The notes beneath the pieces are model-generated. The model was not told the DNA's origin, did no database searches, and saw nothing but the letters and a program-made list of their open reading frames with translations. Of a stretch of DNA of 64,000 nucleotides, positions 480 to 48,378 are shown piece by piece (position 1 is the stretch's first letter; every line of letters begins with the position of its first letter). A program made the position numbers and the translations under genes. Source of the DNA: a virus. The DNA lies in IMG/VR virus record IMGVR_UViG_3300045988_126112, positions 64,001 to 128,000 of that record; one strand, 5' to 3'.

Positions 480-490
480 TATATATTATA
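480..490 (+). promoter_or_regulatory. Class I box TATATATTATA-N4-TG (candidate early promoter)
   Basis: cactTATATATTATAactaTG. Intergenic, 114 nt upstream of 604. Confidence 0.5.
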
Positions 491-603
491 ACTATGACAT
501 AGATATATAATATAATAAAAATATATTGGTAGTATCTTATGAAGAGATACAAATTATATCAAGTTTTCTATGTTACTTGATATAATAATTTTGGAGGTTT
601 ATT

Positions 604-882
604 ATGAGAAAAGCAAATATAAAAGGAATAGCAAATGCAAAAGGTTTTAAATTTGAAGTAAAAGTGTCAATAGGTTCTGCTGAAATAGTTAATGACAGAC
701 ATTTCTGTGGTAATAAAGATTATGACGGAAGCAAAAAAGAAATAAAAGATTTTAATTTTGAAATAGCAATGGAAGCAGAAGAAGCTAAACTAGATATAGA
801 TATGTTTGCTAAAGACATAAAAGAAACAATAAAAGAACAAATAGAAAAAAATACAGTAAGTACAACAAAAGCTGCTAAATAA
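604..882 (+). CDS. Hypothetical protein (92 aa)
   Basis: ORF track; GGAGG 7 nt upstream; terminator follows at 900-935; class I box at 480-490. Confidence 0.7.
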   Translation: MRKANIKGIANAKGFKFEVKVSIGSAEIVNDRHFCGNKDYDGSKKEIKDFNFEIAMEAEEAKLDIDMFAKDIKETIKEQIEKNTVSTTKAAK

Positions 883-899
883 TAAGAAACAAAAACAAA

Positions 900-935
900 A
901 TAAACACATGATTAATTTCATGTGTTTATTTTTTC
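900..935 (+). terminator. Rho-independent terminator
   Basis: aaacacatga/tcatgtgttt 10-bp stem followed by a T-run. Confidence 0.75.
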
Positions 936-967
936 TATGTTACTGTGTAAAACTCAATGAAGATGAT

Positions 968-978
968 TATATATTATA
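968..978 (+). promoter_or_regulatory. Class I box
   Basis: gatTATATATTATAtaagTG. Follows the terminator at 900-935; 49 nt upstream of 1027. Confidence 0.55.
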
Positions 979-1026
979 TAAGTGTATGAATAATATAATA
1001 TATATAAATTAAAGGAGGTAAATATT

Positions 1027-1377
1027 ATGAATACAAATCTTATAACAGAATCTACTTTTGCATTACATTTATTAGACAGTCTAAATTTTACAAAGGTTAA
1101 ATATGATATCGAATTATCATATGAAACTTTAAAAGCTTTAGAGAATATACAAGAAGAATCTAAACATATAGTTTTGAATTCATTATTGGCAATAGGAGAT
1201 TGCCTAATGAATGAAAATGACTGTAATATAGAAAGTATAATCAATGCAACAAAGACTATGTTAAATTCTGTAGTAATGATACACAGTATAAATCTAGATA
1301 TAGAAGACTATAAATTTGTAAAGAAAATTTGCAATTGTGTAGATGTAATTGAAACTTTATCTAAAAAGTATTTATAG
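1027..1377 (+). CDS. Hypothetical protein (116 aa)
   Basis: ORF track; AAAGGAGG upstream; class I box at 968-978. Confidence 0.7.
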   Translation: MNTNLITESTFALHLLDSLNFTKVKYDIELSYETLKALENIQEESKHIVLNSLLAIGDCLMNENDCNIESIINATKTMLNSVVMIHSINLDIEDYKFVKKICNCVDVIETLSKKYL

Positions 1378-1390
1378 GAGGTAATATATT

Positions 1391-1762
1391 ATGAAAATAT
1401 CAATTGAAAAAATTAGTATCATTAATATTACATTATTAGATATCACCAAAGGAGGAATTGATGTTTTAAAAGATTCTACACATATTAAAGAACATCAATT
1501 AATAGATGAGATATCTTCATTATTTCAAAATATAATAAAGCATAGTATAATAGCACCTTTGTCTTTATTAGCTTTGGAAGAAGATAATGAAAGAGATCTT
1601 ATTGGTATTGTAAATGTAGCAGAAGGGCTTTTTGATATAGCAATATCAAGATGCAATTGTATCGAAGACAATACAACATTAAGACATATCAGAGGAACAT
1701 GTAAGCTAACGAAAAAAAGAATAGTTAATTATCTAAATGCAAATATTTTATCAATAGAGTAA
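1391..1762 (+). CDS. Hypothetical protein (123 aa)
   Basis: ORF track; AGGAGG upstream; terminator at 1768-1805. Confidence 0.7.
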   Translation: MKISIEKISIINITLLDITKGGIDVLKDSTHIKEHQLIDEISSLFQNIIKHSIIAPLSLLALEEDNERDLIGIVNVAEGLFDIAISRCNCIEDNTTLRHIRGTCKLTKKRIVNYLNANILSIE

Positions 1763-1805: not shown

Positions 1806-1824
1806 GCCAATTGCTTTGAAATAA

Positions 1825-1838
1825 TAACAATATATTAA
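1825..1838 (+). promoter_or_regulatory. Class II box
   Basis: aaaTAACAatatatTAAaat. The TAA begins 27 nt before the ATG at 1863. Confidence 0.55.
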
Positions 1839-1862: not shown

Positions 1863-3950
1863 ATGCTAAACCCACTAGATATAAATAAACGTAAACATGA
1901 AGTAGAACAAGCTATATCTCCACAAAATTTATCAATGACTGAACGTTCAGCAAGAAAAGGGTCTATATCTAAAATGGAAGAATGTTTTAAATATTGGAAT
2001 TCTTTTTCAGTAGATGAAACATTATCTTTACATCATACATTAGATATCGTAAAAGAATGTTTATCTCATAATAATGATGACTATGTAAAAGATAAGATAT
2101 CATTTATACTTGAGAATAATCTAATACCTAAACTACACAAAAAAGAATCTTTATTAGAAGTAAATACCTTTTCCATAGATTGTGGTTTACCTAATTTAAA
2201 ACTTCTATCTAAATGTAATGAAATGATTACATATGATAGAATACTTAGAAATCAAAATACTTTAGAAAACGGTATAGAAGTTACATCATATAGAGATTTA
2301 GAGGAATGTGTAATGGATATATGTAATGCATATAATAATTCTGGATTATCTATGAAAGAAAAATATGCTTTAAGTGTTGAGAGTTCATTATATACAAAGT
2401 ATTTATTATCTAATATAATTATGGTAAATGAATCAGATGAAGATATAATAGACTTGGTCGATTTATTTTTTGCTTTAAACTGTAATGAGCAATTTGAATA
2501 TGATAAAATTAATCCTATATCTTTAAATGAAGATATAAATTCTTTTTCATATTCAGTTGTAAATGGAATGATGAGTGGTATGTATATAAATGGTGGATGG
2601 ACTGTAGATCAAATGCTATCTAGATTACCTCATGGAGAACTTAAAAAATATGAAAAAGCTAATAAGTTACATCCTTTAGATGTTATAGACTTAGAGATGT
2701 CTAAATCTATAAGTGCTTATACTAATAATGAAAGTGGTGATTCATATAGAAGTGAATTTATTAAAAAGAAAATAGACGGCAGAAGTTATAATTGCATAGC
2801 TTTTTATGAAAATGCTTCTTTAAGCAAATTATCTATCTTATATAAAAAAGGAGAAAATCTAGTTATAGTTCCTATATATTCTAAATTTGGTGAATCTCAA
2901 CCACTTATTGTAGAAAGAGGAGTAGCTAGAAATCTATATGAAGAAACTGATAATCTAATATATCTTGATGAGAAAAAACTTATGAAGAAATTAGAAAAGA
3001 AAGTTAAATCTATAGACTTTAAGAATATAAAAACTCTAAATGAATTAAAGAAAAAGATAGATAATATGTGTACTAAATTCTTTACTAAGAAAGATACTTC
3101 TATATTAGATGAAGTTCCTGGAGTATTTACTTGTGTAAGAGCTAGTTGTATAGCTGGTGCTTTTGCTGTTCATCCTATGTTTGGTGCTGTTGCTTTTATG
3201 ACTAATAAGTTTATGAAGATGCATTTTGAGAGAAAACAAAAAGATAAAGTTCTTAAACAATATGATGCTGAAATTAAAAAAGTTGAAAGCAAAATAGAGA
3301 AATGTAAAAGCGATAAGACTAAAGAAAACTATAAGAAGTACCTTAAAGAATTAAAAGATAATCGTAGTACTCTTGAAGAATATTATGATCAATTCTTTAC
3401 TGACGATGAATTATATGATAACTTTGACGAATCAACTGAAGTATTAAATGAATTATCACTTACAAATAGTCTTAAATTAGCTAAAGAAAAATTTAAGAAA
3501 AATTTTGTAAAAATGTCAGATAAAGAAAAGAAACTATCTACTCAAATGGATAATGCATACGATAGATTTGTATATCAAGTTGAAAAGAATCTTTCTAATA
3601 AAAATAGAGAAGCAGTTATTAAAGGTTCTTTAATACCTTCATTCTCTGCTATGTTAAAACTTGCAATGGCTGCTGCTACAGTTAGTTTTATAAGTCCAGC
3701 ATTAGCTGGTATAACTGTTATGGGTGGTATAGCTGCATCTAAAAATGCTACAAGAAAAGAAAGAAAATATATATTAGATGAAATAGATATACAATTAGAA
3801 ATTGTAGAAAAGAAACTTCAATTAGCTGAAAATAATAATGACATGAAAGCATATGAACAACTTCTTAGACTAAAAAGACAATTAGAAAGCGAAAAGAACA
3901 GAATTATCTACAAAAGAAAAAGATCTATTGTTGCTACTAAATATAACTAA
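1863..3950 (+). CDS. Hypothetical late protein (695 aa) with C-terminal hydrophobic segments and coiled-coil-like K/E-rich stretches
   Basis: ORF track; AAAGGAGG upstream; class II box at 1825-1838. Hydrophobic runs: CIAGAFAVHPMFGAVAFM and LAMAAATVSFISPALAGITVMGGIAA. No family recognised. Confidence 0.75.
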   Translation: MLNPLDINKRKHEVEQAISPQNLSMTERSARKGSISKMEECFKYWNSFSVDETLSLHHTLDIVKECLSHNNDDYVKDKISFILENNLIPKLHKKESLLEVNTFSIDCGLPNLKLLSKCNEMITYDRILRNQNTLENGIEVTSYRDLEECVMDICNAYNNSGLSMKEKYALSVESSLYTKYLLSNIIMVNESDEDIIDLVDLFFALNCNEQFEYDKINPISLNEDINSFSYSVVNGMMSGMYINGGWTVDQMLSRLPHGELKKYEKANKLHPLDVIDLEMSKSISAYTNNESGDSYRSEFIKKKIDGRSYNCIAFYENASLSKLSILYKKGENLVIVPIYSKFGESQPLIVERGVARNLYEETDNLIYLDEKKLMKKLEKKVKSIDFKNIKTLNELKKKIDNMCTKFFTKKDTSILDEVPGVFTCVRASCIAGAFAVHPMFGAVAFMTNKFMKMHFERKQKDKVLKQYDAEIKKVESKIEKCKSDKTKENYKKYLKELKDNRSTLEEYYDQFFTDDELYDNFDESTEVLNELSLTNSLKLAKEKFKKNFVKMSDKEKKLSTQMDNAYDRFVYQVEKNLSNKNREAVIKGSLIPSFSAMLKLAMAAATVSFISPALAGITVMGGIAASKNATRKERKYILDEIDIQLEIVEKKLQLAENNNDMKAYEQLLRLKRQLESEKNRIIYKRKRSIVATKYN

Positions 3951-5063: not shown

Positions 5064-5072
5064 TCAATTTAA

Positions 5073-5086
5073 TAACAATATAATAA
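5073..5086 (+). promoter_or_regulatory. Class II box
   Basis: ttaaTAACAatataaTAAaaa. Upstream of the putative capsid gene. Confidence 0.55.
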
Positions 5087-5120: not shown

Positions 5121-6872
5121 ATGCCAGTAGTTGGTGAAAAAAAGAAAAAACAATCAAATAATAAGTCATACATGTATGAACCTATTTACGGGCTTTCAAA
5201 AGCTTTCTTAGAATGTGCAAAAGATATATTAAATGAAGGTAGAGTAGATATATTCTCTAATGCTAAATTAGCATGTTTACAAAAAAATACAAATGATTCT
5301 TTAAAAAGATTCTTTATAGAAGAATCTGCTGATAGAGATTCTATGACTGCCGAACAATATGATGATCATATGCTTATGATGGAACAATTATATGAAAATG
5401 ATCGTGATTTATTGCTTGAATATACACCAATGGCTACAGTTAACCCATTAATCGGTACAACTTTACCATTACACAAAAACTTATTAATGAACAATGTGTT
5501 CACTCAAACAAATGCTATACCAAAAGCAGTAGCAGCATCTCCAAAGTGGACAGAATCAATGGAATATAGATATCTTGTAACTCCAGATGGAGAAGAAATA
5601 GATTTCTATACTCAACAACATTTAATGACTAAAGCAGTAGATGCTACAGCTCCATATAAAGAAATAGAACTTAAACTTCCTGAATATGGAGAAACAGATA
5701 TGTTAGATGCTATAGGAGCAAGTTCTATAGACAATTTATCAGTAGATACAATAGTATCTGCAGTTGCTGTACCAGTAACAGAAGTTGCTGATGGACAAGA
5801 AGAAGCAAAAATAGAAGGTGTTGACGGAACTTATATTTGGATGCCAGTTAACATCAAATTTGGTCCTACTTATGGTGAAAATGAAAGAGCTATGGTAGGA
5901 AACATAAGACCAGCATTAACAATTAAAAACTTAAAAGTTGATGGTGATATACAAGACGATATGATCCAAGGTACTATGAATAAAAATAAAATAACAGTAG
6001 TTGGATTAAAAGGAATGGTTAAAGCAGTTAAAATTAGAACTAGAAAAGATACTTCTAATGCAATGCTACCAACTTGTAGTGTAAAATGGAAAGAAATCAC
6101 AGATTTATTCGAAATGCCAAATGCAATTCCAATAAATGTGCCAATCTCTCCAGAAGAAATAAAAGACTATGCTGCATTATATAATATAAATCAATTAACA
6201 AAAATAATGTCTATGATAAAAATAGTATTAGAAAACTATAAAGATGATCATATACTAGAATTCTTAGATAATTCATATGATAGACTAGATCCTAGTCAAA
6301 CTAACTTCTTACAAATTGACTGGGCTCCAAGACATAACTATGCATTAGATCATGTTGAATGGAGACATAAAGTATCATTTGATGCAATTGATACATTTGC
6401 TACTAAATTAGTAAATATATTAAATGATCCAAATGTTACTACAACATTCTTCGGTAGACCTGATTTAATAAGAAAAATAACTCCAACTGAATATTCTTAT
6501 GAATCTCCTAAGAATATAGGACCAGTTACATTAGAGTTCCAAAAGGCTGTACATACTACAGACAACAGAACTTATCAATTCATTTCTTCTCAAAAATTTG
6601 AAAAGAAATATGATTCTAATTTAGCAAATCAATTAATATGTATATTATCACCTAAAAATACTGATAGAATAATATACAAAGAATACGATTATCAAATGTA
6701 TGTAGGTAATGAAATAAGAAATGCTGTAAACTATGCATTACCAGCTGTACATTCATTTGAAAGATGGATGATGACTGAATATCAACCAGTACAAGGTAGA
6801 ATAGAAATACTTAACCCAACTGGAATAGTAGAAAAACCAGCTGTAAACGTTAATATAATAGAAAAACCTTAA
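5121..6872 (+). CDS. Putative major capsid protein (583 aa)
   Basis: Own class II box (5073-5086) and a strong terminator (6897-6930). Visibly different codon choice (many TTC/AAC/CCA/GTA codons) suggests high expression. Follows the acidic scaffold-like gene. No diagnostic motif seen, so the call is positional. Confidence 0.4.
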   Translation: MPVVGEKKKKQSNNKSYMYEPIYGLSKAFLECAKDILNEGRVDIFSNAKLACLQKNTNDSLKRFFIEESADRDSMTAEQYDDHMLMMEQLYENDRDLLLEYTPMATVNPLIGTTLPLHKNLLMNNVFTQTNAIPKAVAASPKWTESMEYRYLVTPDGEEIDFYTQQHLMTKAVDATAPYKEIELKLPEYGETDMLDAIGASSIDNLSVDTIVSAVAVPVTEVADGQEEAKIEGVDGTYIWMPVNIKFGPTYGENERAMVGNIRPALTIKNLKVDGDIQDDMIQGTMNKNKITVVGLKGMVKAVKIRTRKDTSNAMLPTCSVKWKEITDLFEMPNAIPINVPISPEEIKDYAALYNINQLTKIMSMIKIVLENYKDDHILEFLDNSYDRLDPSQTNFLQIDWAPRHNYALDHVEWRHKVSFDAIDTFATKLVNILNDPNVTTTFFGRPDLIRKITPTEYSYESPKNIGPVTLEFQKAVHTTDNRTYQFISSQKFEKKYDSNLANQLICILSPKNTDRIIYKEYDYQMYVGNEIRNAVNYALPAVHSFERWMMTEYQPVQGRIEILNPTGIVEKPAVNVNIIEKP

Positions 6873-6948: not shown

Positions 6949-8136
6949 ATGCCTGTAATATTAATTAAGCCAAGAAAGGTAGTAAGACAGTATAAAAATA
7001 GTGTAAATTGTGCTCCTCTTGAAGATGCTATGAGTAAGATAAAATTAAATCCTACTAATGATAGGCTGACGAATTTAATGAAAGTTCTAAACGATCTATT
7101 TAAAGGAACTGATTGTAAAGGAGTTATATATACTAAAAATACTGATAAACCTTTATTTGGAATGTGTGTTATGCCAGTTATAAATGAAACTGATGTAAAG
7201 AAAATGATATTAGAAAATGACTTTAGTACTTTAAAACAAAACTATTTCTTAGAGTTTGATTCTAAATTATTTGAAATAGGATTAACTACTAGAGAATTAG
7301 TAGCAGTCGTATTACATGAAATAGGTCATATAATACTTGATATAGATAAAGCTGTAGATGAAGTTACTAAATCTTTTTATATGTATCTTCAAAAGAATAT
7401 GGAAACTATAGATATGCAAAGATTTATAAAATATGCAGACTTATTAGCTTTTGGATTTAGAGATGCTATTAGAAAGATAAACAATATATTCTCTGATGAA
7501 GAAACTAATGCCGATTCTTATGCTGTAGCTTTAGGATATGGGCAAGAATTAATAAGTGCATTAAAGAAAATAACTGATAGATGTACTTTATTAAATAAAG
7601 ATTTAGATAATAAACTATTAGTTCTTCAATGGACTCTTAGATTATATAAAAATATGAAACTTAGAAGAATACCAGCTATAAGAACATTAGAAAAAACTTA
7701 TCAAATGACTGGTAGTGAATTAGAAAAAAGAGAAATAAATAAATGTATGAATGCTATAAAACAATATGAATACGATGCAATAGATGAATCAGCTGTTTTA
7801 GAAGAAAAGACTAAGCTATCTATATTTAGAAGATTTAAATATAAAGGAATGCGTGGAATAGAAGACGATTTATATGGATTAACTCTAAGAGTAAAATCAG
7901 TTGATGAACAAGATGAAGCATTAATGATTCTTAGAGATATAAATAGTAGATTAGCTATTCTTGATGACTATATTTCTAGCGAAGATTTAGACCAAAATGA
8001 TTTAGAAAGATGGAACGCAGTAAGAAAGAAATACTTAATGCTTAGAGAGGAACTTTCTAAGAAAACAACATATGATGATAAATACTATGGATTATTTATC
8101 AAAACACCAGTTGTTAAATCAAGATATGAATATTAA
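6949..8136 (+). CDS. HExxH zinc-metallopeptidase-like protein (395 aa)
   Basis: ORF track; AAAGGAG upstream. VAVVLHEIGHIILD motif encoded near 7310-7340. The rest is helical/charged. Terminator at 8136-8166. Confidence 0.45.
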   Translation: MPVILIKPRKVVRQYKNSVNCAPLEDAMSKIKLNPTNDRLTNLMKVLNDLFKGTDCKGVIYTKNTDKPLFGMCVMPVINETDVKKMILENDFSTLKQNYFLEFDSKLFEIGLTTRELVAVVLHEIGHIILDIDKAVDEVTKSFYMYLQKNMETIDMQRFIKYADLLAFGFRDAIRKINNIFSDEETNADSYAVALGYGQELISALKKITDRCTLLNKDLDNKLLVLQWTLRLYKNMKLRRIPAIRTLEKTYQMTGSELEKREINKCMNAIKQYEYDAIDESAVLEEKTKLSIFRRFKYKGMRGIEDDLYGLTLRVKSVDEQDEALMILRDINSRLAILDDYISSEDLDQNDLERWNAVRKKYLMLREELSKKTTYDDKYYGLFIKTPVVKSRYEY

Positions 8137-8166
8137 GAGCTTAGGTAATTCCTAAGCTCTTTTTTA
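8136..8166 (+). terminator. Rho-independent terminator
   Basis: agagcttagg/cctaagctct stem followed by ttttt. Confidence 0.8.
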
Positions 8167-8187: not shown

Positions 8188-8198
8188 CATATATTATA
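8188..8198 (+). promoter_or_regulatory. Class I box
   Basis: aatCATATATTATAtaggTG. After the terminator at 8136-8166; 39 nt upstream of 8237. Confidence 0.55.
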
Positions 8199-8236
8199 TA
8201 GGTGAAATAAAATAAATATATTGGAGGTAATACAAT

Positions 8237-8821
8237 ATGAATAATTTTGAAGTACAACAAAAAGAAATAAGTGATGAAAAATATTTAGCATCAATAATGA
8301 ATAAAATGATGTCACTAGAACGTTATGTAGATGTATGTAGTAAAGCAAAAGAGATGGGCATTTCAACTAAAGAAATGATATCTTTTGTTGATGATTTTTA
8401 TGGAGAACCAAATATTTGTAATCATGAAGTATCATTTGATTGTAATGTATTTGAATATACATATTCAAATGGAGTTAAAGATGGAGTAAAATGTAGAATG
8501 TGTAATCATAAAATGAAATTAGAAACTTTTGATTTAGCAGTAAAATTAGGATTAGGTAATAAAATTATTGATATAAATAAGGAGGAAGAAACAATGAAAA
8601 AATATTTAATATTAGGGCAATTTAATGATGGAAGTACAGGTATGATGTATGCTATAATAAATGCCAATGATGATTTAGAAGCTATGAAAAAAGTAGAAAA
8701 ATCATTAGAAGATGGACATGTAAATACAGATATAATATCAGTAATGAGTCCTATTGAAATAACTGATTCAGATCAAGTTAATTTTGTTATCCCTAGTGGA
8801 ATAACAAAATTAGATTTCTAG
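8237..8821 (+). CDS. Hypothetical Cys-rich protein (194 aa)
   Basis: ORF track; GGAGG upstream; class I box at 8188-8198. An in-frame internal AAGGAGGAAG-N5-ATG at about 8595 could give a separate 75-aa product. Confidence 0.65.
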   Translation: MNNFEVQQKEISDEKYLASIMNKMMSLERYVDVCSKAKEMGISTKEMISFVDDFYGEPNICNHEVSFDCNVFEYTYSNGVKDGVKCRMCNHKMKLETFDLAVKLGLGNKIIDINKEEETMKKYLILGQFNDGSTGMMYAIINANDDLEAMKKVEKSLEDGHVNTDIISVMSPIEITDSDQVNFVIPSGITKLDF

Positions 8822-8863: not shown

Positions 8864-8902
8864 AATTACATATATGACTTAATATAAAGGGAGGTATAAT
8901 AT

Positions 8903-9265
8903 ATGGGACAATTAACAGATATACTTAATAAGGCAAAAGAAAGAGATAAGATGGTACAATATGCAAATAAGTATAAAGCATACATAGCAACAATAACTAT
9001 GATTGTAAAAGATGAAAATGATGAAGAAGTTAAAATTGATTTAATTCATCCTATACTTGCAGAGAGTGAAAAGCAAGCTCATGATATACTACAAATGCTA
9101 ACATCTTATGATAACTTTACAAAAGATGCTAATTTAAATTGGGTATTGGATTATTCCAATAGAAAAGAAAACTTATCAAAAACAGTTTTGAAAAATATTG
9201 CAACATGTGATTTCAAACTGGAATCTAATTTAGGAGAGGAAGGTGCAGCATATGTCATTAACTGA
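8903..9265 (+). CDS. Hypothetical protein (120 aa)
   Basis: ORF track; GGGAGG upstream. Confidence 0.65.
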   Translation: MGQLTDILNKAKERDKMVQYANKYKAYIATITMIVKDENDEEVKIDLIHPILAESEKQAHDILQMLTSYDNFTKDANLNWVLDYSNRKENLSKTVLKNIATCDFKLESNLGEEGAAYVIN

Positions 9266-12629: not shown

Positions 12630-12653
12630 TTAAAATACAAACAACATTTAATT

Positions 12654-12684
12654 AGTCGATAGTATTAATTTACTATCGACTTTA
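12654..12684 (+). terminator. Hairpin (weak terminator; poor T-run)
   Basis: agtcgatagta/tactatcgact 11-bp stem followed by only tt. Confidence 0.4.
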
Positions 12685-12709
12685 GATGTTACAGAAGGGG
12701 TGAAATATT

Positions 12710-13493: not shown

Positions 13494-13504
13494 CATATAT
13501 TATA
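13494..13504 (+). promoter_or_regulatory. Class I box
   Basis: aatCATATATTATAatatTG. 21 nt upstream of the ATG at 13525. Confidence 0.5.
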
Positions 13505-13524
13505 ATATTGGGAGGATGATTAGT

Positions 13525-15042
13525 ATGGAAAAAGAAATAATACATTACATTTGTGAAAGACCAGAATTTATTCATGTTGATGAATGGGTTCCAAATGAAG
13601 AAGACAAAATACTTAATTGGATGAAAGACGAATTTGTAGTTCCTGTATCAAGTTTCTTAAATCAGGAACAAAATTTACAATTGGATTGTTTCAGTTTAAA
13701 GGTTAAAAAATCTTATAAGAGCGTAAAGGCAAAAGATCATTTTTGCCAATATTTAAATTACTTTGAAAAATTTTACGACAAAGACAAAGAACTAATATCA
13801 ATTTATTCTAGAATAAAATGTATGATAGACGGGTATAAAGATAAATATACTCCAGAGCTATTAAAGCAAGACATCAATAACTATTTGTTATCATATTCTA
13901 TGAAATGGAAAGTTAGAAGAATGAATAATGATAACTATATTCCTTTAGAAAAGAAATATAAGAATAGTAAAAAACCAGGGTTAGAATATAATGATATACA
14001 TTGTAAACTAATGCTGGAATTATCATTGTTCCAAATAATGATGATACCTATATTAACACATTACGCATATGTAAATAAAGTATTAGATATAACAAACTTC
14101 TTATTAGAATTCTATGATTTAATTCTTTATATGAAAAATGTTACTATAAATTTACCAAATAAATTTTACGAAACTGTAAAATCTAGTACTGAACACAGTA
14201 CTATAAATAACCCAATATGGGATAAACAAGATATAAGAGGATTAAATCCAACAACATTTGCAATAGAACATTCAAATTCTATAATATTGCAATTAATGCC
14301 AAAATATATTTATAGTTCAGCAGCTGTTGCATTAAACTTTAATTCTATAAAACAAAATATAGACCATCAAGTTATAGGTAATGAATATGAATTCGTATTT
14401 GTTAAACTTGATAATATAAAGAAAGATGAAGATTCAAATTCAGAATTTGATAAGTTTGAATCTTATACAGCAAAACAAGACGAATCATTGTATATTGAAT
14501 TAAATCATATAGCTAGGGAATCAATGAAAATGATTGAATTTAAATATGGTCCTTTTGACCAAGCTGAAATAGAATTCTATAAAAGAGAATTATTTGATGA
14601 TACAGATTGTATAAATAATTTTCAAAAGCATATAGTATTCAATTTGTTTTATCAAATATTTGGAGATACAGAAAGTATAAAAGCTATAAATAAAGATGAT
14701 TATATCAAACTTGTTATAGCAGCTAAAAGGATATTCCATAGTTATAAAATGGTTATAATGCCATATGTTGTATCAAGCAAAATAGTCAAATCTGTAAGCA
14801 GAAAGACTATAAATAAGAAAGAAGAGAAGAAGATTGATGATAGTGAAATATTTGAGTTATTAATGAAAAAATATAATAATAACCCTAAGGTTAAAGAACA
14901 TATCTTATCAATAATAGCAACAATATATTCATCTACTTTTAGAATGATAGATTATAATGATAGAAATATAAATGGTAAAATAATGCCATTGTTTATGGAA
15001 TTTATCAGTAAAGAAGTATGTGATTATGCAATGTTAACATAG
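13525..15042 (+). CDS. Hypothetical protein (505 aa)
   Basis: The track ORF starts at 13516, but that ATG abuts the GGAGG. The ATG at 13525 (MEKEIIHY) has 9-nt spacing. Class I box at 13494-13504; terminator at 15051-15087. Confidence 0.7.
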   Translation: MEKEIIHYICERPEFIHVDEWVPNEEDKILNWMKDEFVVPVSSFLNQEQNLQLDCFSLKVKKSYKSVKAKDHFCQYLNYFEKFYDKDKELISIYSRIKCMIDGYKDKYTPELLKQDINNYLLSYSMKWKVRRMNNDNYIPLEKKYKNSKKPGLEYNDIHCKLMLELSLFQIMMIPILTHYAYVNKVLDITNFLLEFYDLILYMKNVTINLPNKFYETVKSSTEHSTINNPIWDKQDIRGLNPTTFAIEHSNSIILQLMPKYIYSSAAVALNFNSIKQNIDHQVIGNEYEFVFVKLDNIKKDEDSNSEFDKFESYTAKQDESLYIELNHIARESMKMIEFKYGPFDQAEIEFYKRELFDDTDCINNFQKHIVFNLFYQIFGDTESIKAINKDDYIKLVIAAKRIFHSYKMVIMPYVVSSKIVKSVSRKTINKKEEKKIDDSEIFELLMKKYNNNPKVKEHILSIIATIYSSTFRMIDYNDRNINGKIMPLFMEFISKEVCDYAMLT

Positions 15043-18380: not shown

Positions 18381-18450
18381 TTTTTGATTCATTCATAACA
18401 AGTGAGCTACAAGGATAGTTATCCTTGTAGCCCTCAGCTTTGTTATTTGA

Positions 18451-18476
18451 CTATTGATATTAATTAATATCAATAG
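18451..18476. repeat. Perfect 26-nt palindrome
   Basis: ctattgatattaa|ttaatatcaatag, in the convergent intergenic gap. Confidence 0.9.
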
Positions 18477-18556
18477 GGGAAATATTTAGATACAAATTGT
18501 ATCTATAATATTTAATACATATTATGCTCTTATTTAGAGCCCTCCTATTATTTTAA

Positions 18557-18695
18557 ATACATAGTTCTTATTGCTTGATGGAAGATTATATTATACATTA
18601 TTAATTATTAATCTTCCTCCCATCCCATAGTTTGGTTATCATCCATGATATCACCTCCCCTCGTTGTTAATATACATTGAAGGAACTATGTATTA
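18557..18695. repeat. 12-bp inverted repeat enclosing about 115 nt, with an internal 9-bp hairpin
   Basis: aatacatagttc (18557-18568) pairs with gaactatgtatt (18684-18695). Inner stem: ggaagatta (18581-18589) with taatcttcc (18610-18618). Confidence 0.8.
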
Positions 18696-18702
18696 CATAA
18701 TT

Positions 18703-18713: not shown

Positions 18714-18729
18714 TTGAAAGAATTAAGTT

Positions 18730-30548: not shown

Positions 30549-30580
30549 AAAGAGGTATTAAGTTACCTCTTTTATTTTTT
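30549..30580 (+). terminator. Rho-independent terminator
   Basis: aaagaggta/tacctcttt stem followed by tatttttt. Confidence 0.8.
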
Positions 30581-30599
30581 GCCAAAACTATTAAATAAG

Positions 30600-30610
30600 T
30601 ATATATTATA
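30600..30610 (+). promoter_or_regulatory. Class I box (TA instead of TG downstream)
   Basis: aagTATATATTATAttaaTA. After the terminator at 30549-30580; 27 nt upstream of 30637. Confidence 0.5.
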
Positions 30611-30636
30611 TTAATATAATAAAGGAGGAATATATT

Positions 30637-33252
30637 ATGAACTTTGAAGGATTAGGAACAATTTATGAATCATTAGGACAATATGATCAAATACCAATGA
30701 CTGAAGAGAATATTAAGAAATACAAATCTAAAGCTAAAGGATTATCTCATATAAGAACTGGCAAAGATTATACAGGTACTATAATTTTAGATAATAAAGA
30801 CGTAGTAGGCTTTTATAATCTTAGAAAATCTGATAGATATATCCAAGCTTTAGAGGTTAGTGAGAATTATCAATCTAAAGGTATTGGAAGTCAATTACTT
30901 CAAGAATGTATTAATAAAGGAGCAACTAAATTATCTGTAAACAAGAAAAATGAAAAAGCTATTAATCTTTATAAGAAAAGAAACTTTAAAGTTGTTAAAG
31001 AAGATAATACCATGTATTATATGGAATTAAATAAAAAGGTACATGGGCTAAAAGAAAGTTATAGTAATATACCAGAACTTAATGAAGATTATAAGAAATA
31101 TATTACTCAAAATTTTGAAGATACTTTAAAAGCTGAAGAAGAAAGTATTGAAAAATTTGGTCTTTCTATTAGAGAAAGATATGAAAATATATTCGATGAT
31201 ATTTGCTCAAGACAATATCTAAATGAAAATGTAAATGAATCTACAGCTTTACAAAATGAAGATTTTGTAAGATCCGTTGGATATCAAATTCCTACAGACA
31301 ATATAACTTGCTTACCTTATTTTACACCACAAGAACTTGAAGATATTGTATTTAAAGAAGGAGTTGAACAACCTGAATGGTTTAAAGAATATAAACTTCT
31401 TCAAAATGGTATAGTTAGTGAAAGATTTATAGAATTGAATAAGCAAAGACTTAATGATTTATATGAAAATATAAATGAAGATTCTAATACTATATTAAAA
31501 CTTGGGTGGACTCCTGATATTCCATTAACTAGTGATAATTTAGAAAAGGTATCTGCAACTACAGCGTTTAGAATTAGATGCAATCTATGTACTAATGAAT
31601 TTTATGATGCTACTTCTATACACGATGATGAGTATATTAAAGAATCTATAGAAACAGGTAAATATATTTATGTAGATATCGACAAATTTATTACAGGAAA
31701 AAATAATGTTTGTTTAATTACTGGATTATCTGGAAGTGGTAAAACTACTCTAGCTAAAGAAATGGCATCTAAATATAATGCTACTATTGTTTCTTTAGAT
31801 AGTTTTACTGGAAAATATGGAGAAATTAATCATGATCCTGTATTAGATTCTTATATGAAAAAGAATAAAAAACTTGCTAAAGATTTAGAAGAAGGAAATT
31901 TAGATAATAATGCTATAGCTTATGAAATGGATAAATATCTACAATATGCTATTTCATATTGTAATAAAGATACTAATAATAAATATATTATAGAAGGAGT
32001 TCAAATATATTGGTTAATGAATGGTAAAGACCTTAAAGGTTGCTCATTAGTTTGCGTAGACGCTTCTGCTGTAAAAAGTGCATTACAAAGAGTTAAAAGA
32101 TCTAATAAATTAAATAAAGAAGCTAATACAAATTTAATAGGTAAATTATCAGATGCTTTACAATCTGCAAAAATTAATAAAGATGATGTTAGAGGTTATA
32201 AAGACTTCAAAAAGGAAGTAAGAGAAGGATTAACTGAAGCTACTAAAGATAATAAAAATCCTGTATATATAATACTTGTATATACAGCATCACCATTTGG
32301 AAAAATGATTAAAGAATATACACATGGAATATATACACATGCAGCTATGTCTTTAGATAATACTTTAAATAAACTTTATAGTTTTAATCTAAATAATCAA
32401 TTTAATAAACTTGGTGGATTTAGTATTGAATCTATAGAGGGTTATAAAAAAGATAATAAAGATGCTATAATGTGTGTATATACTACATTCATAGATGATG
32501 ATAAGAAAAGAAAACTAGACAAACAAATAAATTACTTTATAGGTAATATAGATAAAACTAAATATAGTATTATAAATGTGCTTGGCTTAATTGCAAATAA
32601 GCCTATAGAATTAGCTAATGATATGATATGTAGTCAATTTGTTGATAGAATGCTTAAGTCTGTAGATATAGACGTTACTGGTATGGCTAGTTCTTTAGTA
32701 ACTCCAAATGATATTTATAAATCAACTTCTAATAAAATATATAAAGTTTATGAAGGAAGAGTTGATGAATATAATCATAAGAAAATTCAAGCTAAAGTTA
32801 ATAAACTTAGACGTTCTAGTATAACTGAAGCTAAATCTGCTCCAGTACAATTTGATAAAGATGGTAATCTTCTTATTATAAAAAATATAAAAGATGTACA
32901 AGAAGAATATAATAAATGCCATAAGTTACTTCTATCTTATGATTCTTCAGGAAATATAGAAGGGATGAAGCATGAGTTATATAAATTATGGTATCTTAAT
33001 CTTATACTTGAAAGAAAGATATATAAGAATAAGAAACCTGAAAAAGAATATCATGATATGAGAGCAAGAATACTTAATGATTTTAATAAGTATCTTAAAA
33101 TAGTAAATAAAGCTGAACCAGACTTTGATTTCACATCTGGTTATGAAGAATCGCCATATAGTGATGCAGCTATTAAAATCCATTCTCATACTTTGAAATA
33201 TGGAGTTAAGTATTCTAAATCATTATTTAAGCTATTTGAAACTGTTTTATAA
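30637..33252 (+). CDS. Multidomain early protein (871 aa): N-terminal GNAT acetyltransferase, central P-loop NTPase/kinase-like module, C-terminal permuted papain-like (YiiX/C92-like) module
   Basis: GNAT motif A: IQALEVSENYQSKGIGSQLLQ...AINLYKKRNFKVV. Walker A: ITGLSGSGKTTLAKEM. C-terminal His-before-Cys pattern: YTHGIYTHAAMSL ... NDMICSQFVDRML. Class I box at 30600-30610. The GNAT and P-loop calls are solid; the peptidase call is tentative. Confidence 0.6.
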   Translation: MNFEGLGTIYESLGQYDQIPMTEENIKKYKSKAKGLSHIRTGKDYTGTIILDNKDVVGFYNLRKSDRYIQALEVSENYQSKGIGSQLLQECINKGATKLSVNKKNEKAINLYKKRNFKVVKEDNTMYYMELNKKVHGLKESYSNIPELNEDYKKYITQNFEDTLKAEEESIEKFGLSIRERYENIFDDICSRQYLNENVNESTALQNEDFVRSVGYQIPTDNITCLPYFTPQELEDIVFKEGVEQPEWFKEYKLLQNGIVSERFIELNKQRLNDLYENINEDSNTILKLGWTPDIPLTSDNLEKVSATTAFRIRCNLCTNEFYDATSIHDDEYIKESIETGKYIYVDIDKFITGKNNVCLITGLSGSGKTTLAKEMASKYNATIVSLDSFTGKYGEINHDPVLDSYMKKNKKLAKDLEEGNLDNNAIAYEMDKYLQYAISYCNKDTNNKYIIEGVQIYWLMNGKDLKGCSLVCVDASAVKSALQRVKRSNKLNKEANTNLIGKLSDALQSAKINKDDVRGYKDFKKEVREGLTEATKDNKNPVYIILVYTASPFGKMIKEYTHGIYTHAAMSLDNTLNKLYSFNLNNQFNKLGGFSIESIEGYKKDNKDAIMCVYTTFIDDDKKRKLDKQINYFIGNIDKTKYSIINVLGLIANKPIELANDMICSQFVDRMLKSVDIDVTGMASSLVTPNDIYKSTSNKIYKVYEGRVDEYNHKKIQAKVNKLRRSSITEAKSAPVQFDKDGNLLIIKNIKDVQEEYNKCHKLLLSYDSSGNIEGMKHELYKLWYLNLILERKIYKNKKPEKEYHDMRARILNDFNKYLKIVNKAEPDFDFTSGYEESPYSDAAIKIHSHTLKYGVKYSKSLFKLFETVL

Positions 33253-33253: not shown

Positions 33254-33264
33254 CATATATTATA
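33254..33264 (+). promoter_or_regulatory. Class I box
   Basis: aatCATATATTATAaaagTG. 38 nt upstream of the Nudix ATG at 33302. Confidence 0.55.
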
Positions 33265-33301
33265 AAAGTGTAACAAAATAAATTATATTGGAGGTATGTA
33301 T

Positions 33302-33793
33302 ATGAACATGCATGCGATAGGACTAGTAATAATAAATGAAAAGGATGAAATATTGATATTAGATCATAATAAGTTTAATATCAAAACAGTTCCAGTAGGA
33401 AAAATAGAAGAAGGTGAATCTATATACAATGCACTTCATAGAGAAATAAAAGAAGAAATTGGTGTAGAATTCAGTAATGAAATATTATTAGCAGATAGCT
33501 ATGTAAGATATGAAAATATAGAACGTAGCTTTGAATATGTATTTGTTGTTAATACAAAAGATATAAAAGGTAAACCTAGAAATATGGAACCACAAAAACA
33601 TTCTGATATGTATTGGGTTCCAATAGATAAATTGCCTGAAATAGGTAGACTTGGAACAGCAACTCATATATTTATGGAATGCTTAAACAAGGGTTATGCG
33701 ACAAATAAAAATCATGAGTTTAAAATAATTAAGCATAATAAAGTTTGTAATCTAGAAAGAGATTATGACCCAGCACTATATATAATACAATAA
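33302..33793 (+). CDS. Nudix hydrolase (163 aa)
   Basis: Complete Nudix box GX5EX7REUXEEXGU: GKIEEGESIYNALHREIKEEIGV. I prefer the ATG at 33302 (7 nt after GGAGG) over the track start at 33296. Class I box at 33254-33264. Confidence 0.85.
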   Translation: MNMHAIGLVIINEKDEILILDHNKFNIKTVPVGKIEEGESIYNALHREIKEEIGVEFSNEILLADSYVRYENIERSFEYVFVVNTKDIKGKPRNMEPQKHSDMYWVPIDKLPEIGRLGTATHIFMECLNKGYATNKNHEFKIIKHNKVCNLERDYDPALYIIQ

Positions 33794-35669: not shown

Positions 35670-35680
35670 CATATATTATA
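35670..35680 (+). promoter_or_regulatory. Class I box
   Basis: aacCATATATTATAgtatTG. Its 3' end starts the hairpin at 35679-35710. Confidence 0.55.
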
Positions 35681-35737
35681 GTATTGAGATATATATAAGT
35701 CTCAATACTATATTAAAAAAATTAGGAGGTAATATCT

Positions 35738-36607
35738 ATGGAAAACAATTATAATAATATGAACGGTCAACAAATGCAACAAGGAGCTGGTAATATAAAT
35801 ACTGAGTTCCAACAAAAAATACAAGCTGGTACAATATCAGCAAATGGAGGACTTGACAATTATGAAATAACAACAGAAAATAATATATCAATGAAAGTTA
35901 GTTCTTATTGTGAATTAATAACAAATGTTGATTTAGCAAAAAGAATAACTTCAACATTAAAATTACTATTCTGTGATTACAAAGGAACATTTGTAGATAT
36001 GGATGGTAATGGTCAAATACAAGTTGTATTATGGTTTGATCCTAACATGAGAAATGGAGAAGGCATTAAAGCAGTAGAAAGAAATGACTTAGCTTTAAAA
36101 GGAACTGGAAGTAAAGTTGCTGAGTTAAAAAATATGAATACAATAATGTCAGGTAATGCTAGACAATATGTAGTAACTAATCAAGGTAAATCATTATTAG
36201 CTAAATTTATAGGTGGAGATCCAAATAAAATAAATTGGAGAAACCATGTAGGCTACTATGATGCCAAACCACAACAATATGCAACAAATAATAGAGAAAC
36301 ATTGGTAAAAATAACTGGATGCAATATAAGAAACATATTAAGATTCATCCATGGTTCTAAAGTTGAAGTAGATAATGATTCAAAACAACCAGAACATGCA
36401 GTATCTTATGATGTTAAGTTTGTTTCTTTTATGAAACCAAATAGAATGCCACAATATCAAATGAATCCATATGGCGTAGTTGTACAAATGAATCAACAAC
36501 AAGAATTCTTATTACAAATACTTTGTATAGACAACGTGTTAATGGATGAATTGAAAAATACAATGGGTATAAATCCAAGCTTAATGGGTTCTATACAAAT
36601 GTATTAA
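35738..36607 (+). CDS. Hypothetical abundant-looking protein (289 aa) with Q/N-rich N-terminus
   Basis: ORF track; AGGAGG upstream. Preceded by both a class II box (35643-35656) and a class I box (35670-35680), plus an 11-bp 5' hairpin. Terminator at 36629-36666. Confidence 0.75.
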   Translation: MENNYNNMNGQQMQQGAGNINTEFQQKIQAGTISANGGLDNYEITTENNISMKVSSYCELITNVDLAKRITSTLKLLFCDYKGTFVDMDGNGQIQVVLWFDPNMRNGEGIKAVERNDLALKGTGSKVAELKNMNTIMSGNARQYVVTNQGKSLLAKFIGGDPNKINWRNHVGYYDAKPQQYATNNRETLVKITGCNIRNILRFIHGSKVEVDNDSKQPEHAVSYDVKFVSFMKPNRMPQYQMNPYGVVVQMNQQQEFLLQILCIDNVLMDELKNTMGINPSLMGSIQMY

Positions 36608-37030: not shown

Positions 37031-37033
37031 TTA

Positions 37034-38101: not shown

Positions 38102-38142
38102 ATAGAAGTAAGGATTAACCTCCTTACTTCTATTTATTTTTT
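38102..38142 (+). terminator. Rho-independent terminator
   Basis: atagaagtaagga/tccttacttctat 13-bp stem followed by ttatttttt. Confidence 0.85.
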
Positions 38143-38157
38143 GAAAGGAGAATAGTT

Positions 38158-45538: not shown

Positions 45539-46564
45539 CTAAAAAATTGATGAAGCAACTGAATCTGGCATTGAATCTACCAAATCATCTGCTTTATATT
45601 TCTTTGTGTTATCACTTTTAACTTCTCTTGAAGCTTTTACTTCACTTTGTTTATTATCTATTGCTATTTTATTAGCAACTTTATCAAAGAAATTAGCAAT
45701 TGCATATTGCTTTTTAGATATTTCTTTTCTTTCTTTAGCTTTCATTCCAGGATTTGTTTCTACAGCTTGAGCATTTATTTTTAATAATTCAGATTGTATA
45801 TAGAAATAATCTGAAACTTGAGTTCTAGTATGGAAGAAGAAGTATACTAATTCTCTCATTATCGGAAGTATATTTGTAGCTAATAAAGTTAAAGCTACTA
45901 CAGCAGCAACACCTGCAACTGAAGTTGAAACACCTAAAAGATTTTTACTAGCTTGAGATATTACATATTCCATTGATTTATCAAAATCACCTTTCTTACA
46001 GCATTGATTGAATTTAGCTAAGTTATTTAAAACTAAATTATCTTTAGTTTTATTAACAGCTATTTTATCAACTACAGCTTCATATGAATCTCCATTAGGA
46101 ATTTTAATAAATTCAACACAAGTAGATATTAAATATGAATTAGCTTGTATAACAGCTAAAGTCATTGTAGAATACATTACCATCGGTAATTCGATACTTA
46201 ATTTAAAAGCTTTTTCAAACAATTCTCTTCTTGAACGTATATTATCTAAAGCTTCCAATACTGTATCTACTGGATTAGCTTTTTGACCATATTGTGATAA
46301 TAAAGATTTCATTACATCTAAACTATCAACCAATTGTTCATAATTACTAAGCTTAGTAATATCACCTTTAGTTTCTGGTATATCACCAAAATCTATATCA
46401 TCAATCTTATTGATGATATGGTCATAAAGTCTACTAGTTAATGATGCTAATATTTGAGATTGGTCTTCTTCATTTACATTAAGCATTATAGTTCTAGTAT
46501 CTTTATCATCTAAATCAAAATGCTCTTTTAATATTTGATCATATTCCTTAGTCATATAAGCCAT
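45539..46564 (-). CDS. Hypothetical late protein (341 aa) with one hydrophobic segment
   Basis: ORF track; GGAGGTGAT upstream; class II box at 46580-46593. Hydrophobic segment: VAGVAAVVALTLLATNILPI. Confidence 0.7.
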   Translation of the reverse strand: MAYMTKEYDQILKEHFDLDDKDTRTIMLNVNEEDQSQILASLTSRLYDHIINKIDDIDFGDIPETKGDITKLSNYEQLVDSLDVMKSLLSQYGQKANPVDTVLEALDNIRSRRELFEKAFKLSIELPMVMYSTMTLAVIQANSYLISTCVEFIKIPNGDSYEAVVDKIAVNKTKDNLVLNNLAKFNQCCKKGDFDKSMEYVISQASKNLLGVSTSVAGVAAVVALTLLATNILPIMRELVYFFFHTRTQVSDYFYIQSELLKINAQAVETNPGMKAKERKEISKKQYAIANFFDKVANKIAIDNKQSEVKASREVKSDNTKKYKADDLVDSMPDSVASSIF

Positions 46565-46579
46565 TTTATCACCTCCACC

Positions 46580-46593
46580 TTAATATTCTGTTA
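46580..46593 (-). promoter_or_regulatory. Class II box
   Basis: Minus strand reads aaaTAACAgaatatTAAggtggagg. 18 nt from the ATG at 46564. Confidence 0.5.
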
Positions 46594-46641
46594 TTATTTA
46601 TATTCCATTTCTATTTAATCAAAAAATAAACTTTCTATATA

Positions 46642-47943
46642 TTATCGCATTTTAGTCATAAGAGTTATCATTTTTCTGAAATCATTATCACTAGATTCTC
46701 TTTCTAGTGATCTAAATGAAAGTCTCTCATAAACATCATTACCAGTATCATAAATGAAGTCACATACTTCATTTAATTCATCTACTATAACAACAGACAT
46801 TAAATTGTAAGATTCCATTATAGGTCTTATTACTCTAGGATTATCTATATGAACATTGTAATTCTTTTTAAGATATTGTACTTCTTCTTGAGAAACTACT
46901 AATGTAGTTATAGCACTAGCATCATTTGGTTGACCTAAAGTTCTTCTTATTTTAGATTTCAAAGAACGTCTTTCTAATACTTTCCATAATTTAGAACTTG
47001 AACCTCTACGTGATTGAGATAAAGCATCTATTTTTGCTTTATCAATAGCAAATAAGAAATCTTTAACAAAAGATATTTCTCTTGTAGTAGCTCTTATGAA
47101 TTTTAAAAATCCATTATTATCTACATTTTTAGAGTATAATCTTTCTACTACATCCATAGAATCTATAGGATATAGTTTTGCTTTTACACCTATAACTAAT
47201 CTATTTTGTATAGGCATTCCATCAGTATTAGTAACAAAGTTTACTATCATTACAGTTGGTACTAATTCATTAGCTTTTTTAACATCTGAATCCATTAATT
47301 GATTTCTAAGAATATCAACATGATTTTTTGAACCTTTAAAATCCATATCTAAATAACGTTCTTCATCATAGTCTATAGGAGGAGCTTCATATAATATAGC
47401 ACTTTGACTACCATCATATTTTGAAGCTACTATCTTATAATTTTCTAATGAAATATTATTTACTGATTCTGGAAGTACATAACTTATATTATGTTTAAAA
47501 TCTTCTTTAAGCAAATCAAGTTTTTCTCTATATTCAATTGGATTGATATTAGCATTTTCATCTGCAGCTGACATTATTAAGTCATCCATTAAATTCATAA
47601 AACTATCAACAGACATTTTATCGTCTATTTTTAGATTAGTATGGAATTTCTTAATATAATCTAATCCATTATTAGTATTATTTACTGATATAGCAGAAAA
47701 AAGCATCTGTAACATAGATACAGCTTTACGTTCAACAGCTTTAGCTACCATTGTTGCATTTTCTACACTTATGTTTCTAACTGTCGCTACTGGAAAGACT
47801 AATGTTAATGCATCTGAAGCATGCGAAATAGATTTGAAACTGTCATTAGCAGTCATACCCTTAATGTAATCTGATTTTCTAACATCATTTATAACGTCTA
47901 TAATATCTCTTATAACTGTTTCATGTATTATATCATTTGACAT
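46642..47943 (-). CDS. Hypothetical late protein (433 aa)
   Basis: ORF track; AAAGGAGG upstream; class II box at 47969-47982. Confidence 0.7.
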   Translation of the reverse strand: MSNDIIHETVIRDIIDVINDVRKSDYIKGMTANDSFKSISHASDALTLVFPVATVRNISVENATMVAKAVERKAVSMLQMLFSAISVNNTNNGLDYIKKFHTNLKIDDKMSVDSFMNLMDDLIMSAADENANINPIEYREKLDLLKEDFKHNISYVLPESVNNISLENYKIVASKYDGSQSAILYEAPPIDYDEERYLDMDFKGSKNHVDILRNQLMDSDVKKANELVPTVMIVNFVTNTDGMPIQNRLVIGVKAKLYPIDSMDVVERLYSKNVDNNGFLKFIRATTREISFVKDFLFAIDKAKIDALSQSRRGSSSKLWKVLERRSLKSKIRRTLGQPNDASAITTLVVSQEEVQYLKKNYNVHIDNPRVIRPIMESYNLMSVVIVDELNEVCDFIYDTGNDVYERLSFRSLERESSDNDFRKMITLMTKMR

Positions 47944-47968
47944 TAATCATACCTCCTTTAATAATATT

Positions 47969-47982
47969 TTAATATAATGTTA
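47969..47982 (-). promoter_or_regulatory. Class II box
   Basis: Minus strand reads tttTAACAttatatTAAaat. The 15-mer TTAACATTATATTAA is identical to the copy at 52175-52189. Confidence 0.55.
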
Positions 47983-48031
47983 AAAAGACAAAAAATAAAA
48001 GACTTATAAGAAGACTTATTATAATATTATT

Positions 48032-48268
48032 CTAAAAGTATGTTATTACATATCTCATAGGTTTAATATCATCTTCTTCTCTTTTTGGTTCCTCAATTTT
48101 GTTACATTTATATTCTTCATGTTGTTTTACAGGTTCAACATAATTAGATGTAGTATCATAAGAATAATTACTTTCGTAACTTCTTTGTTTTCTACGTCTA
48201 TTACTTGAAACTGCACTCCTTCTTATATAAGTGTAACTACTTTCTGCACATAAGCCTCTATTATACAT
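48032..48268 (-). CDS. Hypothetical protein (78 aa)
   Basis: ORF track; GGGAGG upstream; class I box (minus strand) at 48368-48378. Confidence 0.6.
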   Translation of the reverse strand: MYNRGLCAESSYTYIRRSAVSSNRRRKQRSYESNYSYDTTSNYVEPVKQHEEYKCNKIEEPKREEDDIKPMRYVITYF

Positions 48269-48367
48269 ATTAAATTCCTCCCTTTATTCGATCGTATTTG
48301 ATATTTAAACATTAAGTTGGAGGTCGGAATTTTATTACATATAATAAGTTCTTATAAGTCTCACTAT

Positions 48368-48378
48368 TATAATATATA
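48368..48378 (-). promoter_or_regulatory. Class I box
   Basis: Minus strand reads cattTATATATTATAatagTG. 100 nt upstream of the start at 48268. Confidence 0.5.

Follow-up and report, generated by a model that had tools for sequence, protein, structure and literature searches.

The virus of IMG/VR record IMGVR_UViG_3300045988_126112 carries, in the 64,000-nucleotide stretch analysed here (positions 64,001 to 128,000 of the record, hereafter the window), eleven copies of an AT-rich box. With a probability of roughly 85%, these boxes serve an AR9-like jumbo phage as early promoters, their reader being a multisubunit RNA polymerase (RNAP) that travels in the virion and enters the cell together with the DNA. 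What was observed is the motif and its statistics, the position and orientation of its copies, their conservation in relatives and the homology of two RNAP proteins. The window has a GC content of 26% and belongs to a human-gut metagenome contig of 244 kb; many samples have variants some 245 kb long, and some contig copies are binned in Romboutsia timonensis metagenome-assembled genomes, which is a hint to the host only. The gene map that was built has 65 genes occupying 94.2% of the window, with 60,319 nt of coding and 3,729 nt (5.8%) of intergenic DNA.

A first-pass annotation made from the letters alone had picked out the core box, TATATATTATA-N4-TG. All eleven copies that it listed are present, with one slip of coordinate (the minus-strand site given as 18703 is 18702-18712) and with two further exact matches missed. 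The full element of this class, class II as distinct from the late-type class I boxes considered below, is YAAT-YATATATTATA-N4-T-G. Numbered from the predicted start, it has Y at -20, A at -19 (10/11) and at -18 (8/11), T at -17 (9/11), T or C at -16, an invariant ATATATTATA from -15 to -6, four free positions from -5 to -2, T at -1 in all eleven sites and G at +1 in ten. ATATATTAT, with T or C before it, is common to every site, and the G is exactly 6 nt past TATATATTAT in ten; the TG four bases downstream of the box is there in the ten copies for which it had been described, site 30600 having TA instead. T(-1) and G(+1) lie outside the search pattern by which the sites were found, and the chance of a TG at a fixed offset in at least ten of eleven sites is P ~8e-13. 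A position weight matrix (PWM) spanning -20 to +1 and trained on the window sites gives a bimodal distribution of scores, with the eleven sites at 17.7-25.8 and the next best window position at 13.8, and about 0.03 matches above 18 are expected from Markov-chain random sequences with the dinucleotide transitions of the window. A T at -43 that is invariant in the window (11/11) was dismissed as chance, being present in only 11 of 22 independent sites.

Enrichment of the 11-mer YATATATTATA is pronounced. The window has 13 exact matches, where dinucleotide shuffles give 2.8 +/- 1.6 and not one of 100 reaches 13; in intergenic DNA there are 12 copies against 0.65 +/- 0.80 expected (maximum 4 in 2,000 trials) under a second-order Markov model trained on the same intergenic DNA. 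None of the 13 copies is wholly inside coding DNA. As intergenic and coding GC are nearly equal (24.6% and 26.9%), base composition does not explain the intergenic pattern. Enrichment in intergenic DNA, which the first-pass annotation had put forward for checking, holds for the window, and the sites in 9.4 kb of its left flank are intergenic as well. All eleven class II boxes are intergenic on the gene map, as had been claimed, and ten point toward the next annotated gene; the eleventh, 18712(-), faces a conserved 12-codon open reading frame (ORF) with a strong ribosome-binding site (RBS) instead of an annotated gene. Each box has an RBS and ATG on its own strand 12-108 nt downstream, and the predicted 5′ untranslated regions (UTRs), likewise of 12-108 nt, always include the RBS. 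A hairpin-plus-T-run terminator directly precedes three boxes (968, 8188 and 30600), for which the description ‘often just after a terminator’ holds; the other eight are right after the preceding stop codon or at a divergent junction. For the genes immediately behind the boxes, either there is no PHROG family or the function is a non-structural one (GNAT/P-loop, Nudix and gp226-like), and to that extent the description ‘small non-structural genes’ is apt; their size is another matter, with proteins of 505 and 871 aa among those served.

The two additional exact 11-mers have a different setting. That at 994-1004(-) forms an inverted repeat with the 968 box; TC comes after it, no gene is in front of it, and it is absent from the PWM matches above 12. 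It is probably no promoter, or at most an antisense one. The other, 8895-8905(-), arises where the RBS and start codon of gene 8903-9265 are read on the opposite strand; it has neither TG nor a gene ahead, and was rejected as a promoter, being a chance match on that RBS and ATG.

The left flank (L021) was held out from PWM training. Within it are six sites, five of them exact 11-mers and the sixth a near-match; all are intergenic and point toward the next gene, the genes in question being those for a DNA polymerase B and a ResIII helicase and small ORFs. The box ahead of the gene for a 505-aa protein similar to AR9 gp226, considered below, is at the same place in five of five relatives (L016-L020; 42-67% protein identity, GC 24-35%), with the surrounding intergenic sequence diverged. 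The sequence there is aatCATATATTATAatatTG in the window and in L019, aatCATATATTATAtaatTA in L016, aatTATATATTATAttatTG in L017, gatCATATATTATAttatTG in L018 and gatGATATATTATAaataTG in L020. Each relative has further copies, all 14 of the PWM matches listed at 12.5 or above in these loci fall between called genes, and L018 and L019 have an equivalent of box 18712(-). In L007, a relative at greater distance (50% identity in the beta'-N subunit of the virion RNAP, GC 31%), there are three copies of TATATACTATA-N4-TG, at 3461(-), 4279(-) and 15692(-), in which the layout is unchanged and C replaces T at -9; this looks like a co-evolved variant and a possible natural change of promoter specificity. 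A k-mer search for common upstream words in eight IMG/VR relatives (L005-L012; GC 29-39%), whose 21-kb loci are mostly late regions, yielded nothing informative. Toward the 3′ end of the primase-like gene, exact 11-mers are also present on the antisense strand of two relatives, at L018:5343(-) and L019:12542(-). These are apparently corresponding positions with similar upstream contexts, and the 11-mers may be antisense promoters, of which the late class of AR9 has known examples; the window has no antisense 11-mer near the 3′ end of its primase-like gene.

Such conservation bears on whether the boxes are promoters at all, the alternative being that a phage regulator binds them, or that they are scars of repeats left by duplication of intergenic cassettes. 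Some copies did arise by duplication, since the 480 region is repeated near-verbatim over at least 78 nt some 6.8 kb leftward (L021:3069). Nevertheless, the flanks of most copies are unrelated and only the 21-nt element is in common, the strand of the box is always that of the downstream gene, position is kept ahead of orthologous genes in diverged relatives, and the element is identical to an AR9 promoter mapped by primer extension and differential RNA sequencing (dRNA-seq; PMC5312081). Scars or regulator sites are exceedingly improbable.

It is the comparison with AR9 that gives the promoter reading its specific form. By dRNA-seq and primer extension 41 early promoters of Bacillus phage AR9 were mapped, with the consensus AAATATATATTAT-(6N)-G(+1) (Lavysh et al. 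2017, PMC5312081). They are chloramphenicol-independent, are active 5 min after infection and have been attributed to the injected virion RNAP (vRNAP), a sigma-less enzyme whose promoter recognition was described as unknown (PMC5312081). The AR9 non-virion RNAP genes g226 and g154 are behind early promoters (PMC5312081). In AR9/PBS1 (Takahashivirus) the 10-nt core TATATATTAT and the 6-nt distance to the G are identical to those of the window. Also alike are the AA at -19/-18, the intergenic and co-oriented sites ahead of non-structural genes including one of gp226 type, the AACA-N6-TA late boxes ahead of virion genes, and the encoding of a homologous vRNAP beta'-N. Four of six annotated AR9 early promoters examined read AAATATATATTAT-N5-TG, so T(-1) is common to AR9 too, and four of the six annotated are among the six best matches of the window-trained PWM in 50 kb of AR9.

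The first-pass annotation, which took the boxes for a distinct temporal class, had itself named AT-rich early promoters of phages of the phiKZ and AR9 types as precedents. Among other jumbo phages, the phiKZ early element is TATATTAC. The phiKZ-like phages (phiKZ, phiR1-37 and 201phi2-1) resemble the window in having a conserved AT-rich element without a -35 box, with the start 6 nt downstream, upstream of early operons, and in its reading by an injected multisubunit RNAP; they differ in having a phage nucleus and another late promoter (TATG, PMC5312081), the late-type box of the window being of the AR9 kind. An AT-rich early element of about 10 nt centred near -10 is present in every RNAP-encoding jumbo phage, with a phage-specific consensus (review PMC7598289), so the promoter mechanism itself is already known.

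Reading by the host was the other proposal of the first-pass annotation, i.e. that the boxes are extended -10 elements of the sigma-A enzyme, and a variant has them as strong ‘-10-only’ or extended sigma-A promoters, with TATTAT at -12 to -7 as the -10, used right after infection. There is a resemblance, as sigma-A/sigma-70 extended -10 promoters have a TATAAT-like AT-rich hexamer at -12 to -7 and a purine start about 7 nt downstream, and TTGTAA or GTGTAA is 17 nt upstream of TATATA in three sites. However, the window sites are without TGn, positions -15/-14 being AT in 11/11, and the best match to a TTGACA-like -35 has a mean of 2.5-2.9 of 6 in three registers compared with 2.6 at random positions, which answers the question whether a -35 element is absent. 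Sigma-70-type consensus sites are not enriched and are, if anything, scarce (138 in the window against 166 +/- 12 in shuffles), with no class II site among the top matches listed. The conserved block is also much longer and nearly invariant, and invariance over at least 10 positions plus T-1/G+1 is unlike the degenerate promoters of sigma-A, while in AR9 the same element is read by the vRNAP (PMC5312081). Lacking both -35 and TGn, the boxes are very improbable host promoters and this proposal is disfavoured.

Reading by a phage virion RNAP, which had been suggested alongside it, is strongly supported by comparison: by the core and spacing in common with AR9, by two RNAP genes within the window and by boxes of AR9 late type ahead of virion genes. 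The first, 18730-20436(-), encodes 568 aa, matches phrog_2986 (8e-84) and keeps the DYDGD catalytic motif. Its product is 32% identical to that of AR9 g145 (E 1e-50), annotated as virion RNAP beta'-N, and the match to the non-virion beta'-N paralogue in the AR9 structure is only 2.9e-7. By sequence it is the orthologue of the g145 beta'-N and the proposed reader of the boxes. The PWM scan of the window placed no class II box upstream of this gene, which agrees with vRNAP genes being late.

The second is the gp226-like gene at 13525-15042(+), whose 505-aa product is a homologue of AR9 gp226, with box 13494 directly ahead and the primase-like gene next in the unit. Gp226, of 464 residues, is the sigma-like promoter-specificity subunit of the non-virion RNAP (PMC9209446). 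In source records the 505-aa protein is a ‘hypothetical protein’ or nameless, phmmer against the PDB found nothing for it, and it matches, weakly, a PHROG family labelled ‘RNA polymerase’ as well as a phiR1-37 protein with that annotation. The link to gp226 was reached by family profile and predicted fold alone. An AlphaFold model based on 45 relatives (mean pLDDT 83) matches the full length of chain A of the AR9 non-virion RNAP holoenzyme (7s01_A, E 1.6e-13) with about 20% identity in the structure-based alignment, the next match being chain B of the phiKZ non-virion RNAP entry 8que; the family profile against the same 464-residue AR9 chain gives E 6.7e-23. More than 350 metagenomic relatives of the protein, from gut and other sources, point to a large uncharacterised AR9-like clade. 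At the position aligned with gp226 V206, which is tied to uracil specificity, residues are variable (P/Q/S/K/E), with P in the window protein.

AR9 late promoters are AACA-(6N)-TA/G (PMC5312081), and the class I box of the window, AATAACACTAWTATA, fits the late consensus AACA-(6N)-TA. AACA-N6-TA boxes precede the genes for the prohead protease (AATAACACTATTATA, 424-438(-)), a 695-aa protein (AATAACAATATATTA at 1823-1837(+), after a terminator and ahead of gene 1863-3950), the major head protein (AATAACAATATAATA, 5071-5085(+), gene 5121-6872) and three virion structural proteins, including that of 48432-49529 (AATAACACTAATATA, 48399-48413(+)). Further late-type boxes are in the intergenic regions 46565-46641(-), 47944-48031(-), 54279-54338(-) and 12630-12709(+). 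Often they are directly past the terminator that closes an early unit. The AACA pattern by itself carries little information, with about 4-5 chance matches in intergenic DNA by our own estimate. At both divergent junctions a class I box faces away from a class II box, just as had been annotated.

The late-type boxes are also where a further alternative has to be weighed, namely that class II boxes are promoters of the non-virion RNAP, or of a middle or continuous class, the label ‘early’ then being wrong. AR9 does have continuously expressed genes with paired early and late promoters (PMC5312081), and AACA-N6-TA strings are just upstream of boxes 968, 8188 and 35670. However, a conserved box also stands ahead of the gp226-like gene, whose product the non-virion holoenzyme requires, so the box must be readable before that holoenzyme exists; as the holoenzyme for late promoters needs the gp226-like protein, its gene must have an earlier-existing reader. 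In addition, virion genes have a different box, and AR9 promoters of the same sequence are active 5 min after infection without protein synthesis (PMC5312081). An origin of class II in the non-virion or a middle class is accordingly quite improbable.

Several points weigh against early promoters read by an injected vRNAP. The start site, the early timing, the independence from host RNAP and the binding enzyme are what we infer from AR9 homology, and for timing, start site and enzyme that homology is the whole basis, with identities of 32% for beta'-N and about 20% for gp226. Kinship to AR9 is distant in other respects also: a GroEL-like chaperonin in the window has AR9 and PBS1 as its best phage matches, with 24% identity, and at the nucleotide level nothing matches. 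The source is a gut metagenome and the promoters of the window are predicted ones. AR9 has A at -17 where the window sites mostly have T (9/11), position -16 can be T or C, and the A at -6 is invariant in the window sites, a further difference from AR9; specificity is hence similar and not proven identical. Only one of the expected vRNAP subunits is encoded in the window. No terminator follows the gene preceding boxes 13494, 33254 and 29450, and read-through may also reach the genes that these serve. Finally, TATTAT is one position off TATAAT and is 6 nt before the conserved G, the normal distance from -10 to start, making it a passable sigma-A -10.

Taking the sites in turn, the first, TATATATTATA-ACTA-TG at 480-496(+), has its predicted transcription start site (TSS) at G496, a PWM score of 21.6 and TTGTAAAA 22 nt upstream, and serves ORFan 604-882. 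Box 968-984(+) (TSS G984; 22.5) comes after terminator 897-932 and serves ORFans 1027-1377 and 1391-1762 in a unit that closes at the terminator ahead of late-type box 1823-1837. Next along are 8188-8204(+) (TSS G8204; 23.6), after terminator 8135-8161 and serving ORFan 8237-8821, and 13494-13510(+) (24.0), 15 nt ahead of the gp226-like start codon, whose predicted TSS, G13510, is the first base of the RBS. Behind box 23990-24006(+) (TSS G24006; 21.4) comes a series of small ORFan genes that begins at 24072. Box 29450-29466(+) (TSS G29466; 25.2) serves a 36-aa ORF, 29478-29588, and then gene 29608-30213. The only copy with TA for TG, 30600-30616(+), has the lowest score (17.7) and, after a terminator, serves the GNAT/P-loop protein 30637-33252. 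The highest score, 25.8, belongs to 33254-33270(+) (TSS G33270), ahead of the Nudix protein 33302-33793 (PF00293). ORFan 35738-36607 is served by 35670-35686(+) (TSS G35686; 22.3). At its divergent junction 48362-48378(-) (TSS G48362; 23.7) serves a 78-aa ORFan, 48032-48268, and behind this unit are a terminator and a late-type box, then virion gene 46642-47943.

The remaining box, 18696-18712(-) (TSS G18696; 24.1), is immediately past the stop codon of the vRNAP beta'-N gene and reads into a 337-nt gap without a long ORF (18393-18729). In the gap is the 12-codon ORF MDDNQTMGWEED at 18608-18646(-), with the strong RBS GAGGGGAGGTG, and both box and a similar micro-ORF (MWDDFDTVGEM; MDDFNTFGEYTPIKKLG) are kept in L018 and L019. 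A 13-bp hairpin, 18404-18433, may terminate the transcript. As Rfam and tRNA scans of the whole window were empty, the gap represents no known RNA family.

Upstream of some boxes there is a second feature. TGTAAAA, mostly TTGTAAAA, is exactly 22 nt upstream in three of the eleven window promoters (458-464, 946-952 and 18734-18740(-), the last overlapping the stop codon of the vRNAP gene). It is at the same distance in two of the six left-flank sites (L021:3047-3053 and L021:6724-6730), and in one relative (L016:13522-13528). For window and flank together the TTGTAAAA-type element is found at 5/17 promoters. It could be a -35-like or UP-like element of a promoter subclass, or a terminator tail. 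The duplication already mentioned has 456-533 as a near-verbatim copy of L021:3045-3122, taking in TTGTAAAAG upstream, the box itself and 37 nt from the start of the leader (ACATAGATATATAATATAA...), and is a duplicated promoter-leader cassette. Three predicted early leaders (8204-8228, 33270-33296 and L021:5405-5427) have G-(A/T)AA-(T/C)AAAATAAAT in common, followed in the first two by a few bases and then the RBS TATTGGAGG; a common motif was reported for AR9 early 5′ UTRs also (PMC5312081). Many terminators have the identical tail TTTTATTTTTTG, often with C or A next (1775-1806, 27965-28000, 30550-30585, 38110-38145 and 47975-48010), and terminator-like sites are enriched, with 13 against 3.0 expected in the first 20 kb of the window.

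Otherwise the gene content is sparsely recognisable. The major head protein and several virion structural proteins can be identified, and at the left edge is a prohead protease (Peptidase_S77), the 5′ part of whose gene is 1-397(-). Megablast with 20 kb of the window found no nucleotide match among deposited phage records, tblastn with the 695-aa protein no match, and Pfam none for most large window proteins. A single ORF of 2,434 aa, 56545-63849(-), follows the block of virion-protein genes, and an exact look-up of it returned no record. Gene 20978-22636(-), which shares its strand block with that for the vRNAP beta'-N, encodes a 552-aa protein (phrog_18873, function unknown) with C2H2-type zinc-finger-like repeats at residues 332-400 (human ZNF568, E 5.7e-7), which is unusual in a phage; it was considered as an RNAP and rejected, its matches being to zinc-finger proteins only.

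On the AR9 model, the vRNAP would recognise the near-invariant YAAT-YATATATTATA at -20 to -6 and start at the G six bases past TATATATTAT. Early transcripts would then encode the ORFans, presumably for host takeover, the GNAT/P-loop protein, the Nudix hydrolase and the primase-like protein, along with the sigma-type subunit, similar to gp226, that belongs to the second (non-virion) RNAP. The AACA-N6-TA late promoters, which precede the genes for protease, capsid and other virion proteins, would in turn be read by that enzyme. In AR9, recognition of the late promoter is on the template strand and depends on uracil; if the parallel holds for late promoters, the gut phages might also carry uracil-containing DNA.

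Tentatively, and with more doubt than confidence, it may be supposed that vRNAP promoter specificity (TATATATTAT-N6-G) has been essentially fixed from AR9 to a large and prevalent clade of human-gut jumbo phages with subunits at about 30% identity, that the TTGTAAAA subset (three of eleven, or five of 17 with the flank) could be an immediate-early subclass or a dual host/phage promoter, and that uracil DNA might follow. That the AR9 consensus is so fully retained at about 20-30% protein identity is notable. Near-identical promoters combined with very divergent vRNAP subunits provide a comparative set in which the residues conserved between AR9 and the gut clade are candidate determinants of specificity, and the TATATACTATA of L007 offers a natural specificity switch. 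For an abundant, uncultured gut jumbo phage, every protein of which that was looked up is ‘hypothetical’ or nameless in source records, there is now a transcription map with eleven predicted early starts, six next door, late boxes and a sigma-like gene, and the two-polymerase cascade of AR9 type would be extended to the human-gut virome.

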